Shown piece after piece: positions 6,401 to 59,576 of a stretch of 64,000 nucleotides of DNA. The notes beneath the pieces were generated by a model. It worked only from the letters and a program-made list of their open reading frames with translations. It ran no database searches and was not told where the DNA came from. How positions within the stretch are numbered: the first letter of the stretch is position 1; the number at the start of each line of letters is the position of its first letter. Origin of the DNA: Raja brachyura (Eukaryota); assembly GCA_963514005.1 (NCBI GenBank), contig OY740810.1, positions 15,562,001-15,626,000 on the forward strand, written 5' to 3'. The position numbers were made by a program, and so were the translations under genes.

Positions 6401-8865
6401 ATAAAATCCGAAAATGCTGGAAACACTCAGTAGGTCAGGCAACTTTTCTGAAAAGAGAAATGCCTCGGGTTCAGAAACTTTCACCAGGCAAAGTGTCGCC
6501 TGACAAGCTGAGTGTTTCCAGCATTTTCTGCATTTGGCATTTTATCAATTAAACAGATGACAAAAAAAACTTTCCACAAGGAAACCATGGAAGGACTTTT
6601 CTCATCACATGTTTTGGGGAGTGCCAACCATCAGCTCATTTATTGGGTTACCTGAAGACTATAGGAAGCCAGCTGCAAGGTTTCTGCACAAATAAGTAGC
6701 AGAGAGCTGCTGTCATCCAAGTGGGGATATTGTCAACTCCTGAGAGTTTATTTGTTGTTGGTATGTGGCAATTTTGCCAACTTGACAGTCGGTTGTGGCA
6801 GCAAGGCTGCGCAAATACATGGCCATGGGATGGAGTCAAGGGCACTCGCATCAAGGACAGAGTCACGACTGAGGAAGTTGTCTTTCCAGTAGACAAAAGT
6901 CCTCTTCCAACCTGCTCAAACTGCACCCCATTGCTGCAACAATGATGCTTTATGATGAGATCTTGAAAATGTGTCACTTTGGCAAAGGCAGACATTGATG
7001 ATGAAATTCACCACTGCCTTTGATGCACCAACCTATCCTTTGGTCAACTGAAGAAATGGGTTTATGAAGGTTCAACTCTAGCGAAATAATCTGTGGTCTC
7101 CTGTACTTGTTGGAGAGCTGGACTGCCTTTAGTGGGTAACTCAAGGAACTGGAAAGGTACCACTGTGCCAAAATCATCCAGAGGATAAGCAAATAAGATC
7201 AGCATCCACTCCAAGGCCAGCACTGGCAACAGTGTTCTCTGTTAAACTCAGTCAGTATGAGTCACGAGGCCATGTAATTTGCCTAACACATTGAAATTGA
7301 TGCTCTACTCCAAGCTTCTTCACAGGAAGGGAATATAGATACTGAGGAAAATATTCAAAGGTGTACGCGACCTCCTCGAAGAAATGTAACATCTCCAAAG
7401 ATTAATAGGAATCTTTGGTCTACAATTGGTTAAAATGGGGAAGGAACATTCAGCGTCATAAGCAGTGAAGGATCACAATACCTTGCCAATTAACCACCTG
7501 CTTGCCCCATCGGGCACAAACCTTTCCTATCCCCATGGAAGACCCAGTAACTCCCACATTTACCTAATCATTTACCTCAGAACCCACAAAACTAGCGGGA
7601 GCAAGTCATCGTCAACGTTGAGGATTACCTCAATCCAGGTGAAGGGAACTGTGTGCCGAATCAGAACTAGAATGATCACATTAGGAACAACATTTCACCG
7701 GCATTGAATGAAACGAGAAGAGAAACTTTTCCTTCTGATTTTTTTTTGTTGCTTTGATTACCACACATTTTACAACCAGTGAAGTATGTTTGAGGCATAG
7801 TCTTTGGTGTAATGTAGGAAATGTTACAGACAATTTGCAGGCAGCAAACATAGTAATGACAAATTAATCTTTTTTTCTGAAGACATAAGAAACTGCAGAT
7901 GCAGGAATTTTGAGCAAAAAACAAACAAACTGAGGAACTCTGCAGGGTCGGCAGAGAAAGGTCTCCACCAAAACTTAGTCTGTCTGTTTCCTACTACAGA
8001 TGCTGTCTGACCTGATAAATTTCCCCAGCAATTTATTTTTAGGCACTGTTTAGTGATGTTGACTAAAGGATCTAAGATTTAATTCCACTGCTGCTCTTCT
8101 GAATAATTATTTTTTTACATCTACCGAAGTGAGCAGTCATTGTTTCAATTTAATGTCTAGTTTAAAAGTTGGCAACTGCAACAGTGCAGCTGTTCCGTCA
8201 GGTCAGTTTGATTAGTAATGGTGTCGGGCGTTACGGAGAGAAGGCTGGACAATGGGGTTAAGAGGGGAAGATAGGTCAGCTGTGATTAAATGGCGGAATG
8301 GATTTGATGGGCCAAATGGTCAAGTACTGCTCCTATCACTTTTGAAATGTCTGTGCAACTCTTTAAGCTAAGTTCTCCAGCTGATGCATAAACAACTTTG
8401 TGGCCCAGGTGAGAATGTTGTTGCCTCTGTCAATACTGACATTCAAGCCGTTTATGTGCATTAATGGCTATCCATTCCACTTAAAAAGCAGCAGCAACAG
8501 GCAGCTTATGCAGTGCAAGAGTTATTCCAGACTCATTCAGAACAGCAATTTGCTACTCAGGGTAAAAGGGAAATATTCTTGTAGAACTAAAAGTGAGCAG
8601 GTAGTTGGAGGGGAGATCCTGTGAAATCCCCCTGTGAATTGATGTTCTGAACATTTCACGTTTCCCACTCTTCTCCCTAATCACCTCTCTTCCCCTGCAT
8701 TCCACTGACCAAGATCCAGAGAAAGATATTTATGCAGTGACTGTTTATCCTTCTGCTATCGATGGAAAATTTCATATTATATCCAAGAAAGAGAAACTTA
8801 TTAACATGCCTGAAAATAGTAATTTGAACACACAAGAGGCAGAACATGCTGAAATCTTGAGTTAA

Positions 8866-9337
8866 GGGCCTGTCCCACTAGCGCGCGATTAGACGCGACA
8901 AGCGTGACAAATTCGGACGCGGGGGTCGCGTGGGAGTCAGGCGATCCCGGTGCGAGTGAACGGCCTGTCCCACTAGCGTGCGATTACACGCGCGACGTCC
9001 GAAGGAAGGACGTTATTTTTCATCACGTGACGATGCGCATGAGCATGCGCGTTGCACGACGTCGGGCAGTGACGTCATCACGCAACGCCACGCTGAAGAC
9101 GCACAACGTCAAAACGTCATCACGTTAATCACGTTCTGCGCGACAGGATTTTGCCGCGCGTAATTTTTTGAGCAGTGTCGGTTTTTGGACACTACGCGCG
9201 ATGTCGACACCAGCTACACACAACTCGACGAGACTCCGGCGATCGCAGTGGGACAGGGTCACGCGAGGCCGGGCGACTAAAGCGACCACGGTAGGTCGCG
9301 CTTGTCGCGTCTAATCGCGCGCTAGTGGGACAGGCCC
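8866..9337. mobile_element. Non-autonomous DNA transposon (MITE) with 39-bp perfect TIRs and TTAA flanks
   Basis: gggcctgtcccactagcgcgcgattagacgcgacaagcg at 8866 and its exact reverse complement ending at 9337; TTAA at 8862-8865 and 9338-9341; interrupts an older repeat; CpG-rich. Confidence 0.9.
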
Positions 9338-23790: not shown

Positions 23791-24850
23791 ATAGAATCAT
23801 AGAAAATAGACGCAGGAGTAGGCCATTCGGCCCTTCGAGCCTGCACCTCCATTCAATATGATCATGGCTGACCATCCAACTCAGTATCCCGTACCTGCCT
23901 TCTCTCCATACCCCCTGATCACTTTAGCCACAAGGGCCACATCTAACTCCCTCTTAAATATAGCCCATGAACTGGCCTCAACTACCTTCTGTGGCAGAGA
24001 ATTCCACAGACTCACCACTCTCTGTGTGAAAAATGATCACCTCATCTCGGTCCTAAAAGACTTCCCCCTTATCCTTAAACTGTGACCCCTTGTTCTGGAG
24101 TTCCCCAACTTCGGGAACAATCTTCCTGCATCTAGCCTGTCTAACCCCTTAAGAATTTCGTAAGTCTCTATAAGATCCCCCCTCAATCTCCTAAATTCCA
24201 GCGAGTACAAGCCGAGTCTATCCAGTCTTTCTTCATATGGAAGTCCTGCCATCCCAGGAATCAGTCTGGTGAACCTTCTCTGTACTCCCTCTATGGCAAG
24301 AATGTCTTTCCTCAGATTAGGAGACCAAAACTGTACGCAATACTCCAGGTGTGGCCTCACCAAGACCCTGTACAACTGCAGTAGAACCTCCCTGCTCTTG
24401 TACTCAAATCCTTTTGCTATGAATGCCAACATACCATTCACCTTCTTCACAGCCTGCTGCACCTGCATGCCTACTTTCAATGACTGGTGTACCATGACAC
24501 CCAGGTCTCGTTGCATCTCCCCTTTTCCTAATCGGCCACCATTCAGATAATAGTCTACCCTCCTGTTTTTGCCGCCAAAGTGGATAACCTCACATTTATC
24601 CACATTATACAGCATCTGCCATGCATTTGCCCACTCACCCAACCTATCCAAGTCACCTTGCAGCCTCCTCACACCTAACACTGCCCCTCAGCTTAGTGTC
24701 ATCCGCAAACTTGGAGATGTTGCATTCAATTCCCTCATCCAGATCATTAATATATATTGTAAATAGCTGGGGTCCCAGCACTGAGCCTTGCGGTACCCCA
24801 CTAGTCACTGCCTGCCATTCTGAAAATGACCCGTTTACTCCTACTCTTTG
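23791..24850 (-). mobile_element. CR1-clade LINE (HER1-like), 5'-truncated, RT C-terminus plus 3' tail
   Basis: [37 protein letters not shown]...KFADDTKL, a frameshift, then LQGDLDRL...VRPHLEYCVQFWSP...RRLRGDLIE...TRGHSL; short-repeat tail near 23791-23810. Confidence 0.93.
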
Positions 24851-25055: not shown

Positions 25056-25145
25056 CCTGCTGTCTCGACAGGCACTGCCATGGCCACCCCACCCCCGCTG
25101 GTACGGGGAACGCTGCATGTTCCCACTGGCAAGCCCAACTTCCAG
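25056..25145 (+). CDS. GATAD2A: GATAD2A coding exon 4
   Basis: Acceptor cttcccag; PAVSTGTAMATPPPLVRGTLHVPTGKPNFQ (human TTPPPLVRGTQNIPAGKPSLQ); donor gtcagt; 90 nt. Not shown in this frame in the ORF track. Confidence 0.93.
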
Positions 25146-25406: not shown

Positions 25407-26073
25407 GCTGGAACAATAAAGTGGAAAGATGCATAATCATCAAAATCTGAAAACAGAATGGCAGCAATCATTAACCTTTCCTCCGTGTGTATTGTAACCC
25501 ACAGGCACAGTGTTATCATGGAATTTCATGCAATTCCAGTAAATTTGAGCAGTTTAGTGTATCGTGCAGTATTATGCTGCTCTTTTCTAATCTTGCATTG
25601 TACATTGAGAGTTATTTTAGCAATATCGTGGTGAGCGCAGATGGTAATCTGAAGTAGTGAATGCAGACTGTGGTACTGAATGCAGACTAACTAGGGAGGA
25701 TTATTTCAGGGGTAATATGGAAATTAGCTTTAGTGGCAACCATAGATGTCATTTCTAACTAATATTTGGGATAGAAGTGACTTTCCTCGAGGGTTGATCA
25801 GAGAATATTAGGATTTCTTCGGCCCTGAAAAATGGGGAAATGGAATACATCATGCGAATAAATGCAATGGTGGAACAATGGTAGAAATTACATCTAGGGT
25901 TGCCACTAAAGCTAATCACCCCCGAAAGAATTCACTGATTTTGTGTTCTAATTTCTGCAATTATGACTCACTAATCTAACTTCCGCAGGAGAAAACAGAT
26001 TAAAGTGGTGAAGTGCTGCCATTCTGTTTTCAGATTTTGATGATTATGCATCTTTCCACTTTATTGTTCCAGC
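25407..26073. repeat. Nested inverted repeats: perfect 60-bp outer arms and 35-bp inner arms
   Basis: 25407-25466 equals the reverse complement of 26014-26073. 25723-25757 matches the reverse complement of 25882-25916 with 2 mismatches. Confidence 0.9.
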
Positions 26074-26131
26074 TCGGCTCTGCCTGTCTTGCTGGGTTGG
26101 CTGGCAGCCCTCCACCTCCACCCCCCTCCCC

Positions 26132-26884
26132 TCAGTCCGACACTGTGATCCTGCTGAAGATGTGCAGCCACTGGCCGCTGCTTCTAGAGTTGTCCTGGTC
26201 GGGTAGAGAATCTGTGGACAGGCTCCTGCCGGCCATGGGCAGGCCAGGCGCCCACTGGAGCTGCTGGTGCTGTTGGTGGTGCTGGCAGCAACAGCGACCT
26301 CCTCCCCCTCCATTTCCCAGCCTCAAGCCCAGAGTCCGGGCCAGCTCCAAATCCAGGTCGGGGCTGAAGGCCGCTCGCAGCGCAGCCCAGTCGAGCTCCG
26401 GGCCGGATGAGGCCGAGCCCAGGCTGGCGCTCTGGTGCAAGCGAGGGTGGGGCCCTCGCTCCTTGGGGTTGTGGATAAAGTGGCAGCGGGTACCAAAGGG
26501 GCAGAACGTCTTCTACTTGGCGTGGCAGCTAAGGGAGCACTGCTCGGCCAGGCCTTGGGCAAACTGGCACATGTCGCCGTAGCGGCCCATCGTGGAGCGG
26601 GTTTCTCTGGAGTTGGAGCGGGTTTCGGCTGGAGTTAGCGCTGGCTGTGAGTTCACCGTGCTGACTGTGGGTCTGAGGGTTCTCCGTGCTGACACTGGGC
26701 CTGGTGTCTCGTCAATCCAGACGTCTCCAACTGCCCCCTGACCGGGGATGGAACACTGGGGGGAGTGAGTGTGGGGGGGCGACCAGGGACGATCCAGTGG
26801 CAGTTCGGAAGCGCTTGCAACGCCAGGGACACTGGTTTGATTCTGGCTGCGGATGAGCCGGTCCGCCCTCAGTCTTAATGTCAA
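26132..26884 (-). pseudogene. ZFP36/TIS11 (tristetraprolin)-family tandem CCCH zinc-finger pseudogene, antisense within a GATAD2A intron
   Basis: One continuous frame: ...[56 protein letters not shown]...SLSTDSLPDQDNSRSSGQWLHIFSRITVSD*. Family consensus is CKYGxKCQFAHGxxELRSLxRHPKYKTELC...FCPYGxRCHFIHN with C-terminal RLPIFxRISVS[DE]. In-frame TAG at 26513-26515 and deletions in both fingers. The 5' boundary is uncertain. Confidence 0.85.
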
Positions 26885-27034
26885 ATGTTTTGCAACGGCG
26901 CTTTTATACTTTCACCAAAACAATGATTTGTTTTCATTTTTAGTTTCAGGCTGACTTTTTCCTTGCATTTCCTACATTTTATCTGGTATTGGTGGCAAGC
27001 GATGCTTGTGTCCATTGATGTCCATCAGTTCATA

Positions 27035-28260
27035 CAATGAACTGAGATGCTGGTTTTTACCAAAGATAAAAACAAAATCCTGGAGTAACTCAGCGGGTCA
27101 GGTAGCATCTCTGGAGGAAATGGATAGGGGACATTTCGGGTTGGAGCCCTTCTTCAGACTGATTGTAAGGGGACGAATTGGAAGCAAGAAAAGACTAAGA
27201 CAAATCAGGGCTGGCAACAGATGACATCAGGCAGGATGGTTTTGATAGGTCGAATACTGGCTAGGGACGGAGTGATCCCAAGAGGGATACAGCGTTGCGA
27301 ACTGTGGATTTAGTTAACCAAATTTTAATTGGCGAGGGGAGTGTTTGTTTCAGTTTCCTAAAATTAGAGAATTCAATGTGTATGAAGGAACTGCAGATGC
27401 TTGTTTAAACTGAAGATAGACACAAAATGCTTGAGTGAATCAGCGTGCCAGGTAGCATTTATGGCGAGAAGGAATGGGTGACGTTTCGGGTCGAGACCCA
27501 TCTTGAGAGTTCAATGTTCATACCGGAGAATACCGTATGTTCATAGGGTTGTAAGCTAGCCAAGGAAAATATGAGGAGAGGTTCCTCCAATTTGCGTGTG
27601 GCCTCACTATGGCAATTGAGAGTTTAAATGGTTAGCAATCGGGGGAATCCAGTAGACCTTGGCGGACCAAGCGTAAGCAGCGAAATGGTCGCTGAGTCTA
27701 CGTTTAAACAAAGTACAGGAGCCCAAATTGTGAACACTGGATGGCCAGCCCAGATTGGTCCTGGCCTTTTCTGGCCTCCAGCTCTTCACCCACCCTCACC
27801 ACTTACTTTTAGCCTGAAGAAGGGTTCTGACCTGAAATGTCACCTATCCTTTTTCATCAGATATGCTGCCTGACCCCCCACTGCGTTACTCCAATGCTTT
27901 GTTTCTATTTCATGCAGGAGGTGCATGTTAGAGGAGGTGCATGTGAGCCTTGCCTCACCTGGAAGAACTGCCAGGGTCCCTGGATGGAGTCGAGGGAGGA
28001 GATATAAGGGCAGGTGTTGCATCTCCTGGGGAGGGGGTAGTGTGGGTGGGATGGGCTGAGTGAACCAAGGAGTTGTGGAGGGACCAGTCTGGAAGGCGGA
28101 AAGAGATGGGGATGGGAAGATGTGATTAATGGTAGGATTACGTTGGAGGTGATGGAAATGTCGGAGTATGATGTGTTGGATGCGGATGCTGGTGGGGTGA
28201 AACTCTGGTCCTGTGTCTGGGGGGAGAAGGAGCGAGAGCAGAACTATGGGACACAGAGGA
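27035..28260 (-). mobile_element. Cluster of nested Penelope-like fragments
   Basis: Reverse-strand matches to the 39380-40235 element (RVPL, IQHIILRHFHHLQR, HIFPSPSLSAF) and several pLTR-type repeats; boundaries approximate. Confidence 0.7.
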
Positions 28261-29954
28261 ACGCGTGTCATGTTCCTATCTATGACAGAAAAGGGGAAAT
28301 AAATAGGCTGGTGATGGATGGAGGTTCTTTAATGGTTAAGTCTGATAAATAGTGAAAGTATAAACACCAAGGGCAACATCCGAGCACTGATTTGATAGTA
28401 ATTGAGTGGCAGAGATACAAAATAATGGTGATAAAGGTAGAAAGTAACCCATGTTAAAGCGTAAAGATCCGCCACTGTCGTCGCTAACATCAGTGCAACA
28501 TTTTGGAAACGAGTGGATGAATGAAGGGATGTCATGATGTGGCTGGATCATTTACTGGGGTTCGTCAATCTGAGCTAAGGAACTGAGACCATCTCAGTCT
28601 GATCTCTGCTGAGTTCCTAATCTCAGTTCCACTGCTGTAACTGATCTGTGTCAGTAGATATGAGATAAGAAAAAGGTATGTTTCAATTTTGCCATCAGGA
28701 GCTTCCTGGATGAGTGAGGGTTTAGTGTGGCTGCTTGTGTCTGCCTTTACATTATTGGATCAGAAATAGGTCATGGCCATGTCAGTGCTTGAGAGTCCTG
28801 AGATGCTTGGCCCTAACATTGTCTGTCTAGGCATAATGCACCAAAAGTTGTTGAATTATAACTTAATGAAATCCCCCTCTCAGCTGAGCTGGAAATTGGG
28901 GGGTGTTTTGCACAGAGAGTGGAGGGTGGCTGGAACAGGCTGCTAGGTGGTGGGGGGTAAAGGTGGTGGAGGCAGACACAATAGTGAAATGGAAAATGCT
29001 TTTAGATAGGTACATTGGTATGTTAGGAATGGAGGGGTATGGTTCGCGTGCAGGTAGAGAAAGATCGTTTAATCTGTCACAATTGTTGGCATGGGCATTG
29101 TGGTCCGCAGGGCCTATTCATGTGCTGTAAAGTGGATGATTCACGTCTCAACCTCGAAAGTTAGCACATAATATACTGTTCATTCTAACGTAATATTGTG
29201 CTGTCTGTGGTAAATTTAAACAGGCAGCCACCCAGGGGCAGAAATCGCTATCAAAACATGGGGGGGGGGTCCCAATTTCTTGGTGGCCACGCGCATATGC
29301 GTGCGCGAGGCTTTGGGGGCTTCAGCCGTGGGGCCCTGTGGACGGTAACATCGGGAGCTGACCGACTCCGAACTCCATCAACAGCAGCTTTGTCCGCCCC
29401 AAATCATGGGGCTTGAAATGGCCTGTTTGCGGGGCTTTTCATCGGCTGGCAGGGGCTTCAACATCGGGAACCTTGTAGCAGTTTGATTTTAAGCCGCGCT
29501 GGGCGATGAAAGGCCCCACGAACGGGCCATATCAGCCCTTAAAAAACGTCTTGATACCTGCTTGAATCTTTCAAAAATTACAATGTGATAAATAACACTT
29601 AAACAAATAAAACTGAAGCAAATAAAGGCAAACAGAAGAACCAACCTTGGAGGGGGGAGAGAGATAGAGATGGGGGGAAAATACTAAATAACGTAAGTGA
29701 CCTGAATGAGGGACTTGCCTGCAAGCCAGCCAGGAAACCAGTCGACCGGAGCCCTTAATGACCTGACCCATTTAAATCCGATACCTATTTAAATCTTTCC
29801 CATCCACCAATACACCCATTAGTTCAAATGGTAATTGTACCCGCATCAGACAGCTATAAGAAATTCTCCGTGAATACCTTCAGTAATACTTGAAGGTCAA
29901 AACACAAATGGTGACACATCGTGTTAATACGATGTTAATAGAGACATTTAACAA

Positions 29955-31560: not shown

Positions 31561-31692
31561 GTAACCACCGCCCGTGCAGTGGGTACAGTAATCCCACCAC
31601 CATTGGTTCGCGGTGTTCAACAAGGGGCCTCAAAGGTTGGATCGCAGCAGAACCCACAGATTGTGATGCCGCCATTAGTGAGAGGAAACCCA
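31561..31692 (+). CDS. GATAD2A: GATAD2A coding exon 5
   Basis: Acceptor ttttgcag; VTTARAVGTVIPPPLVRGVQQGASKVGSQQNPQIVMPPLVRGNP; donor gtaagt; 132 nt. Repeated PPPLVRG/MPPLVRG motifs as in human GATAD2A. Confidence 0.93.
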
Positions 31693-39365: not shown

Positions 39366-39379
39366 TGATCTACAGCACA

Positions 39380-40735
<1,356 letters not shown>

Positions 40736-53934: not shown

Positions 53935-54870
<936 letters not shown>

Positions 54871-58631: not shown

Positions 58632-59576
<945 letters not shown>

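Follow-up and report, generated by a model that had tools for sequence, protein, structure and literature searches.

Part of a gene for an mRNA-decay factor appears to lie antisense within an intron of GATAD2A in the skate Raja brachyura, and its presence there raises the question of where it came from, how it reached the intron, and whether it is the only such piece in the genome. A first-pass annotation of the window (the whole 64-kb stretch of DNA analyzed here) had assigned 26074-26884 to a ZFP36-family relic.

Results

The Relic Is a Broken Fragment of a ZFP36-Type Gene

The two minus-strand open reading frames first read as one frame split by a single TAG do belong together: the stop-to-stop frames 26513-26911 and 26132-26512 (-) form a single frame interrupted by TAG at 26515-26513, where, as proposed, the stop replaces the Tyr of the finger-2 lead-in. 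Read through with X, this frame matches the solved finger domains of TTP (1m9o, E 2e-7) and ZFP36L2 (1rgo, E 5.6e-7), and among 3595 candidates it matched three batoid proteins, with a skate ZFP36-like protein best (E 1.9e-56). Because of the structure matches and the similarity to skate proteins, chance likeness to ZFP36 is excluded, and the suggested family origin stands. When intact skate proteins were compared with the window by tblastn, the sole matching stretch was 26596-26135, and their first ~115 residues matched nowhere in the 64 kb; since the match is limited to this stretch, the ZFP36 part starts midway through finger 1, at RYGD (~26584), and what precedes it is foreign. The coding fragment corresponds to the last ~170 residues encoded by the skate ZFP36-type gene; gapped alignments to three named skate proteins are 64-68% identical. 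The extent first assigned to the relic therefore has to be divided: 26584-26135 is ZFP36-derived, 26585-26884 is not, and the part shared with other copies of the repeat is 26068-26857 (Table 1). We found no second copy and no N-terminal ZFP36 piece within the window.

Table 1. Features of the element copy and of its host intron
Feature	Position	Strand	Basis or remark
Internal fragment of multi-copy element (leader, ZFP36 piece, 3' segment)	26068..26857	-	Depth step and shared loose ends; both true ends lost here
Non-ZFP36 GC-rich leader, internally repetitive, varying between copies	26585..26857	-	No tblastn homology to parents; shared with L. erinacea P0067
Tandem pair in leader, 21-22-bp period	26593..26636	+	Followed by 28-bp pair at 26645-26700
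ZFP36-derived coding fragment	26135..26584	-	Mid finger 1 (RYGD) to C terminus; stop TGA 26134-26132; tblastn and tree
Premature TAG in place of Tyr, finger-2 lead-in	26513..26515	-	Other aligned contigs have a Tyr codon
30-bp in-frame (10-codon) deletion site, finger-2 Cys1 gone	26506..26507	-	At least 12 X8 contigs with extra sequence there
Decayed CNOT1-interacting motif	26135..26173	-	4/13 residues changed; 27-bp (9-codon) deletion just before
Post-stop sequence common to other copies	26068..26131	-	Deepest coverage; same residues in P0087
60-bp perfect inverted duplicate of intron 25407-25466	26014..26073	.	Overlaps element end by 6 bp
Other arm of 60-bp inverted duplication	25407..25466	.	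Single-copy depth between arms
Second inverted pair, 35 bp, 94%	25723-25757 / 25882-25916	.	Nested, single-copy intron DNA
GATAD2A exon upstream of host intron	25072..25145	+	Bounds inferred from AG/GT, approximate
Next GATAD2A exon found, downstream of host intron	31570..31690	+	Approximate

A functional ZFP36/TTP protein requires two intact fingers, and the relic has neither. Finger 1 lacks Cys1, Cys2, and its His, the last through the His-to-Gln change reported earlier (codon at 26557), and finger 2 lacks Cys1; the zf-CCCH Pfam score is 15.9 bits, under the 20.5 cut-off. The first (R/K)YKTEL lead-in is missing, and the second carries both the TAG and a deletion. Loss of the first Cys segment had been counted as damage in both fingers, which is right for finger 2, where a 10-codon deletion removed Cys1, whereas the loss of two Cys and the lead-in from finger 1 is the junction common to the repeat family and not damage to this copy. 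Breaking either ZFP36 finger abolishes RNA binding, as described in PMC12710939, so the window copy cannot bind RNA. Toward the C terminus, the distal in-frame deletion described earlier is present (9 codons), and the CNOT1-like tail said to be intact is altered (RRLPIFSRISVSD to QWLHIFSRITVSD, with R-R-P becoming Q-W-H); 9 of its 13 residues are kept, including the Phe, and it lies behind the premature stop.

The relic is changed at 14 of 63 invariant sites (positions unchanged across 13 other elasmobranch orthologues) and at 13 of 78 other sites (Fisher p 0.52), and three intact skate proteins show 0/73 changes at invariant sites. This copy decays neutrally, without purifying selection, and with its significant homology and disabling lesions it is a ZFP36-derived pseudogene fragment. 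A finger-less product from this copy, earlier thought conceivable, finds no support in this neutral decay or in the reading frame itself: besides the K>M codon at 26572, the only in-frame ATG upstream of the break is at 26590, and the TAG follows 25 codons later. As for the GC and CpG richness first attributed to the relic, its GC content (0.64) is indeed above that of all 632 sliding windows of the stretch, but its CpG o/e of 0.53 is unremarkable, being equalled or exceeded in 78 of the 632.

The Source Is a Skate Gene Located Elsewhere

Indels found in the skate proteins recur in the relic, and those of the sawfish protein are absent from it. In a quick tree that took in 47 of 128 proteins and fragments, the relic groups with Rhinoraja, Amblyraja, and Leucoraja sequences (SH-aLRT 100) within an elasmobranch clade that stands apart from L1 and L2 yet is not joined to reptile ZFP36. 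The parent-type proteins (P0001 from Rhinoraja, P0004 from Amblyraja, and P0005 from Leucoraja) are annotated inconsistently as ZFP36-, L1-, or L2-like.

The scaffold with the intact ZFP36-type gene measures 16.7 Mb in Amblyraja, 12.4 Mb in Leucoraja, and 19.6 Mb in Pristis, and the one with TSSK6 measures 34.7, 31.1, and 35.7 Mb, respectively; the gene and TSSK6 are thus on scaffolds of different length in all three named batoids where both are comparable. Because the intact gene and TSSK6 are on different scaffolds, we take the relic to be a copy from another chromosome. A unitary pseudogene (i.e., a dead orthologue) is ruled out, since in these three batoids the intact gene is not at the TSSK6/GATAD2A locus. 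Compared with the elasmobranch ZFP36-type gene, which the skate-specific indels and the grouping with skate sequences mark as its source, the relic lacks the N-terminal ~115-118 residues, has both fingers broken, a premature stop, and an altered tail, and differs in being on another chromosome and multi-copy.

The Relic Belongs to a Dispersed Repeat Family

Parts of the stretch are contained in 20 of 21 runs, under eight organism labels; we used one run each (X1, X4, X8, and X12) of four related organisms, A-D. Contigs were aligned at 80% likeness, a setting that admits short spurious pieces and likely inflates low-complexity bins. The four runs gave 728, 840, 905, and 1046 aligned contigs, piled on the element, over a flat flank depth of 7-8, 6-7, 91-148, and 27-31. 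This flat intronic cover, together with contigs of 25-41 kb, indicates that X1, X4, and X8, not on record as DNA, are probably DNA runs. Relative to the flanks, depth is 198-505x at 26080-26149, 55-242x in five bins of 26150-26499, 162-258x at 26570-26639, and 40-75x at 26780-26849 in the leader. It remains at 0-2x in the internal bin 26710-26779 (GC 0.66) and in flank bins of GC 0.59-0.60, so GC richness alone is not the cause of the depth.

Summed contig depth is no copy number, and we read it as indicating the order of a hundred; the counts of contigs with loose ends are a safer lower bound on copies. At least 31, 41, 30, and 30 contigs in X1, X4, X8, and X12 run past 26068 at the 3' end, and at least 18, 19, 17, and 17 run past 26857 at the 5' end, in each case with common sequence next to the junction. 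Among the pieces listed for X1, the five longest that do not stem from the window copy have single-locus depth (3.9-9.4) and differ from it by 11.6-18.3%. The element is an interspersed repeat with many diverged, dispersed copies, probably on the order of a hundred, and the flanks of the window copy are single-copy.

Short low-stringency alignments to a few ZFP36 paralogues could in principle mimic such a signal; 355 of the 728 X1 records are <90% alike, and some loose ends resemble other paralogues. We regard this artefact as extremely improbable, given that the GC-rich internal control stays at 0-2x, that the non-coding leader is deep as well, that sharp boundaries are common to at least 17-41 contigs in all four runs, and that two copies have been annotated independently (P0067 and P0087).

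Annotated Copies Share One Chimeric Junction

Those two Leucoraja entries, found among the 120 listed of 202 protein matches, are truncated copies annotated as genes, under the names "ZFP36-like" and "ZFP36L3-like". P0087 is on an 88.0-Mb scaffold and P0067 on a 139.7-Mb scaffold, and the parent P0005 is on that of 12.4 Mb. The leader in the window closes with an ATG (26590-26588) whose frame is that of the ZFP36 piece, and P0087 begins MGRYSDKCQFAHG (MGRY), as the window does from this ATG; after a later frame shift it continues with the window's stop and post-stop sequence. P0067 (L. erinacea) has the leader in common with the window (16/21 residues, E 2e-7), and the break in the middle of finger 1 (RYGD) is common to the window, P0067, and P0087. 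Translated by hand, the loose-end consensus at 26068 agrees with P0087 at 6-7 of the 10 residues that come next there, and an X8 loose end at 26636 gives the repeated PQPARRRS of P0067. A further protein, P0007 (Logan), has an MG-x-Y start and an open frame of 180 residues, with 97% identity to the parent-type P0002. It could represent a young copy, a converted copy, or a chimeric contig. Finger 2 is kept in P0007, P0067, and P0087 (Pfam 38-43 bits). No truncated entries from sharks or other rays were noticed among the 120 listed of 202 matches, which weakly suggests that the family may be confined to skates.

The earlier description of a dead duplicate or retrocopy is therefore correct as to "dead" and wrong as to a single event, since the relic is one of many copies in a family that has its chimeric junction in common. 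A single duplicate is excluded by the contig pile-up. Repeated, independent formation of processed pseudogenes from a ZFP36 mRNA expressed in the germline would account for a piece that starts within the coding region, resembling 5' truncation, but such copies would not be expected to share one RYGD break and the same leader in the window, P0067, P0087, and P0007; this explanation is already largely refuted and we rate it as very improbable.

The leader contains the ~22-bp tandem repeat reported at first, and the leader as a whole could have come from the parent gene, either out of its intron or from upstream of it. A search with the leader frame returned one match among 123 candidates, and a search with the frameshifted tail over 1.84 billion representatives likewise one, in each case the query itself. 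The leader 19-mer had no occurrence in viral contigs, and a metagenome scan (80 of 92 loci kept) found 25 alignments, finger-region DNA matches only, with no skate copy. At 26103-26111 we observed further classes of loose ends, comprising at least 9-18 contigs in X1, X4, and X12 and at least 7 in X12 on the other side. They show that, right behind the stop region, the sequence of other copies is different or has additions, and they possibly represent a version of the element without the ZFP36 piece.

The Insertion Is Shared with Relatives and Both of Its Ends Are Lost

The host gene is GATAD2A on the plus strand, with exons encoding P66_CC (E 3.5e-21) and GATA (E 7.5e-10), a coiled coil that matches p66-alpha 2L2L, and TSSK6 downstream; the antisense intronic position first described is thus correct. 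Two tandem intronless frames of 270 residues downstream of GATAD2A, 53935-54747 (-) and 58632-59444 (-), encode kinases, the former clustering with shark and ray TSSK6; for several of these species, too, there are two entries. A CpG-island-like segment (o/e ~1.3) lies at 8400-9300 within a GATAD2A intron. Sequences at 39369-40200 (+) and 27840-28350, with ~130-bp repeats (e.g., 27032-27166 and 27385-27508), are presumably Penelope-type retroelement debris and short terminal repeats, and had no Pfam or Rfam match; the frame 24037-24687 (-), which we take to resemble the C-terminal end of a CR1-type LINE ORF2, had no Pfam match. Rfam (gathering threshold) and ARAGORN searches of the 64-kb window found nothing.

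The right junction of the relic is bridged by an X1 contig (26466-27030, no differences) and an X4 contig (26795-27030), and the left junction by an X12 contig (24962-26108, 3.4% different). Misassembly is therefore unlikely, although no listed contig spans the whole stretch, and the insertion, bridged in X1, X4, and X12, is older than the separation of A, B, and D. In X8 (organism C) the left contig ends at 26046 and cover is zero at 26920-27030. The earlier view of the copy as "young" is not supported: it is shared with an organism 3.4% different in the flanks, long pieces of other copies differ from it by the 11.6-18.3% given above, and 11 of its 27 residue changes are explainable as CpG transitions. 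Next to the right junction, 43 bp (26858-26900) lie between the family-shared end and the flank, and the X12 right-flank contig fits only from 26901, its remaining 86 letters leftwards not matching.

Helitrons have a 5' TC and a 3' hairpin with CTRR, and they insert between A and T with no duplication of the target. The window copy, which has lost both ends, shows no terminal repeat, Helitron end, poly(A), or target-site duplication; the true ends of the element lie farther out than the 30 letters of loose-end sequence covered here. No inverted repeat bounds 26068-26857, the 60-bp pair being single-copy host sequence on one side only, and a search for target-site duplications found only A/T-rich matches of 6-8 bp away from the junctions. 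We infer that the 60-bp inverted duplicate is likely a template-switch repair scar where the 3' end of the element was lost. The two arms are predicted to pair into a long hairpin within GATAD2A pre-mRNA (z -13.9 versus 20 shuffles), which has no known consequence. The interval 25407-26073 was also considered as a MITE and rejected, as depth between the arms is single-copy.

Discussion

We consider it likely that a single event fused a piece of ZFP36 to a foreign GC-rich leader and that a non-autonomous mobile element then multiplied the fusion as its cargo; the window holds a dead copy. A single junction shared by dispersed copies argues that all descend from one chimera, which was later amplified. 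Within the skate lineage, the ZFP36-type gene would have contributed its 3' part, from mid finger 1 through the stop and beyond, to a fusion with the repetitive leader, maybe as a 5'-truncated retrocopy or by template-switch capture; the single intron of the ZFP36 family is in the N-terminal region, to which the relic fragment does not extend. The chimera would then have been copied about a hundred times to many chromosomes inside the element, and one copy would have inserted antisense in the GATAD2A intron before A, B, and D split. Loss of both ends would have followed, with microhomology repair probably removing the 3' end and leaving the 60-bp inverted duplicate, and that copy would then have decayed neutrally with many CpG-type changes, doing nothing as protein.

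Amplification of a rearranged ZFP36 locus with no transposon at all, through segmental duplication, satellite-like arrays, or repeated break repair, would fit the lack of element ends here and the adjoining inverted duplication with 6-bp microhomology, which suggests a repair-type insertion. Against it stand the single-copy flanks on both sides of this copy, the location of known copies on different scaffolds, and ~100 copies with common outer sequence on both sides, and we judge it improbable.

If a mobile element was the carrier, there is about an even chance that it was of DNA type (Helitron or TIR), with an RNA-type carrier (LINE, Penelope, or LTR driven) somewhat behind and a small share left to any other kind. 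A DNA-type carrier is favored by the shared extensions on both sides and the heterogeneous internal deletions among copies, as well as by the GC-rich cargo described for multicopy Pack-TIRs (PMC8277862) and the expansion of Tc1/mariner reported in skates (PMC12361510). The RNA branch could take the form of a composite retroposon (SVA/LAVA-like), in which a transcribed master locus of GC-rich leader and ZFP36 body is reverse-transcribed in trans by LINE/Penelope-type machinery; we hold this form to be possible yet unlikely, its weight being partly included in that of the preferred reading. The depth is weighted to the 3' end (198-505x versus 40-75x at the leader), as under 5' truncation, the leader has short tandem units, and LINEs are given as the most abundant repeat class of the little skate in PMC9605692. 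However, at least 17-19 contigs per run pass the same 5' point, the 3' peak bin is partly low-complexity, and no poly(A) or LINE tail is seen, though the 3' end is missing in this copy. Copies also differ by internal deletions and replacements, which suit gap-repair derivatives of DNA elements.

Whichever carrier served the captured piece, known systems offer parallels. SVA/LAVA-type composite retroposons join a GC-rich repetitive segment to host sequence and are copied in trans; the skate copy differs in having no visible poly(A), SINE-R/LINE tail, or target duplication and in having a body of protein-coding sequence. An SVA-transduced gene, AMAC, is mentioned in PMC8277862. Bat Helitrons (Helibat) likewise amplify host gene fragments: protogenes occur in 110 of 645 exemplars (12,382 copies in total), and four 5'-truncated retroposed mRNAs inserted into the element were propagated to 118 copies, according to PMC4224331, a precise precedent for a truncated retrocopy multiplied together with its carrier. 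The skate relic shows no Helitron ends and belongs to another lineage, and whereas bats favor 5' and promoter pieces (PMC4224331), the skate piece is the final coding exon and has an in-frame ATG by chance. As interchromosomal GC-rich captured sequence amplified by transposition, multicopy Pack-TIRs and Ssk-FB4 resemble it (PMC8277862). The survey in that source gives only four multicopy cases in 100 animal genomes, with three copies in the frog example, compared with ~100 in the skate family, and no TIRs are visible at the skate copy, whose ends are lost.

We found no description of a ZFP36-fragment repeat in skates or cartilaginous fish in the openly accessible literature searched, and "zfp36" has no occurrence in the main text of the skate genome papers PMC9605692 and PMC12361510. 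The family may already sit in de novo repeat libraries as "unknown". The repeat is apparently undescribed; amplified captured gene fragments as such are already known, and it is the copy number and the cargo that stand out.

TTP mutants that do not bind RNA act as dominant negatives. Because the leader ATG is in frame, intact copies of the skate element would make a one-finger protein that keeps the CNOT1 motif and does not bind AU-rich RNA. Such a product with an intact tail is conceivable from other copies, since finger 2 is kept and, as reported in PMC9476947, the tethered TTP motif is able to promote decay by itself. It is a long shot that the element is skate-specific with live copies whose one-finger CNOT1-motif protein (e.g., from the P0007 frame) could blunt ZFP36 activity, or whose many intronic antisense copies would feed small RNAs against the parent. 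The small-RNA variant, if true, would be the vertebrate counterpart of a conflict over captured sequence known from maize, where spill-over of small RNAs onto donor genes is reported (bioRxiv 10.1101/777037).

The window copy itself is ordinary dead DNA. Multicopy captured gene fragments are rare in the animal genomes surveyed in PMC8277862 outside bat Helitrons, and a ~100-copy family whose cargo is the effector half of an mRNA-decay gene related to inflammation would count as a strong example from vertebrates and, within the literature searched, as the first on record for cartilaginous fish. In practice, copies annotated as genes will confound read mapping and gene counts, and shared insertions could be used as phylogenetic markers in skates. 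The family also offers a direct test of whether the silencing of a repeat spills over to its donor gene in a vertebrate.
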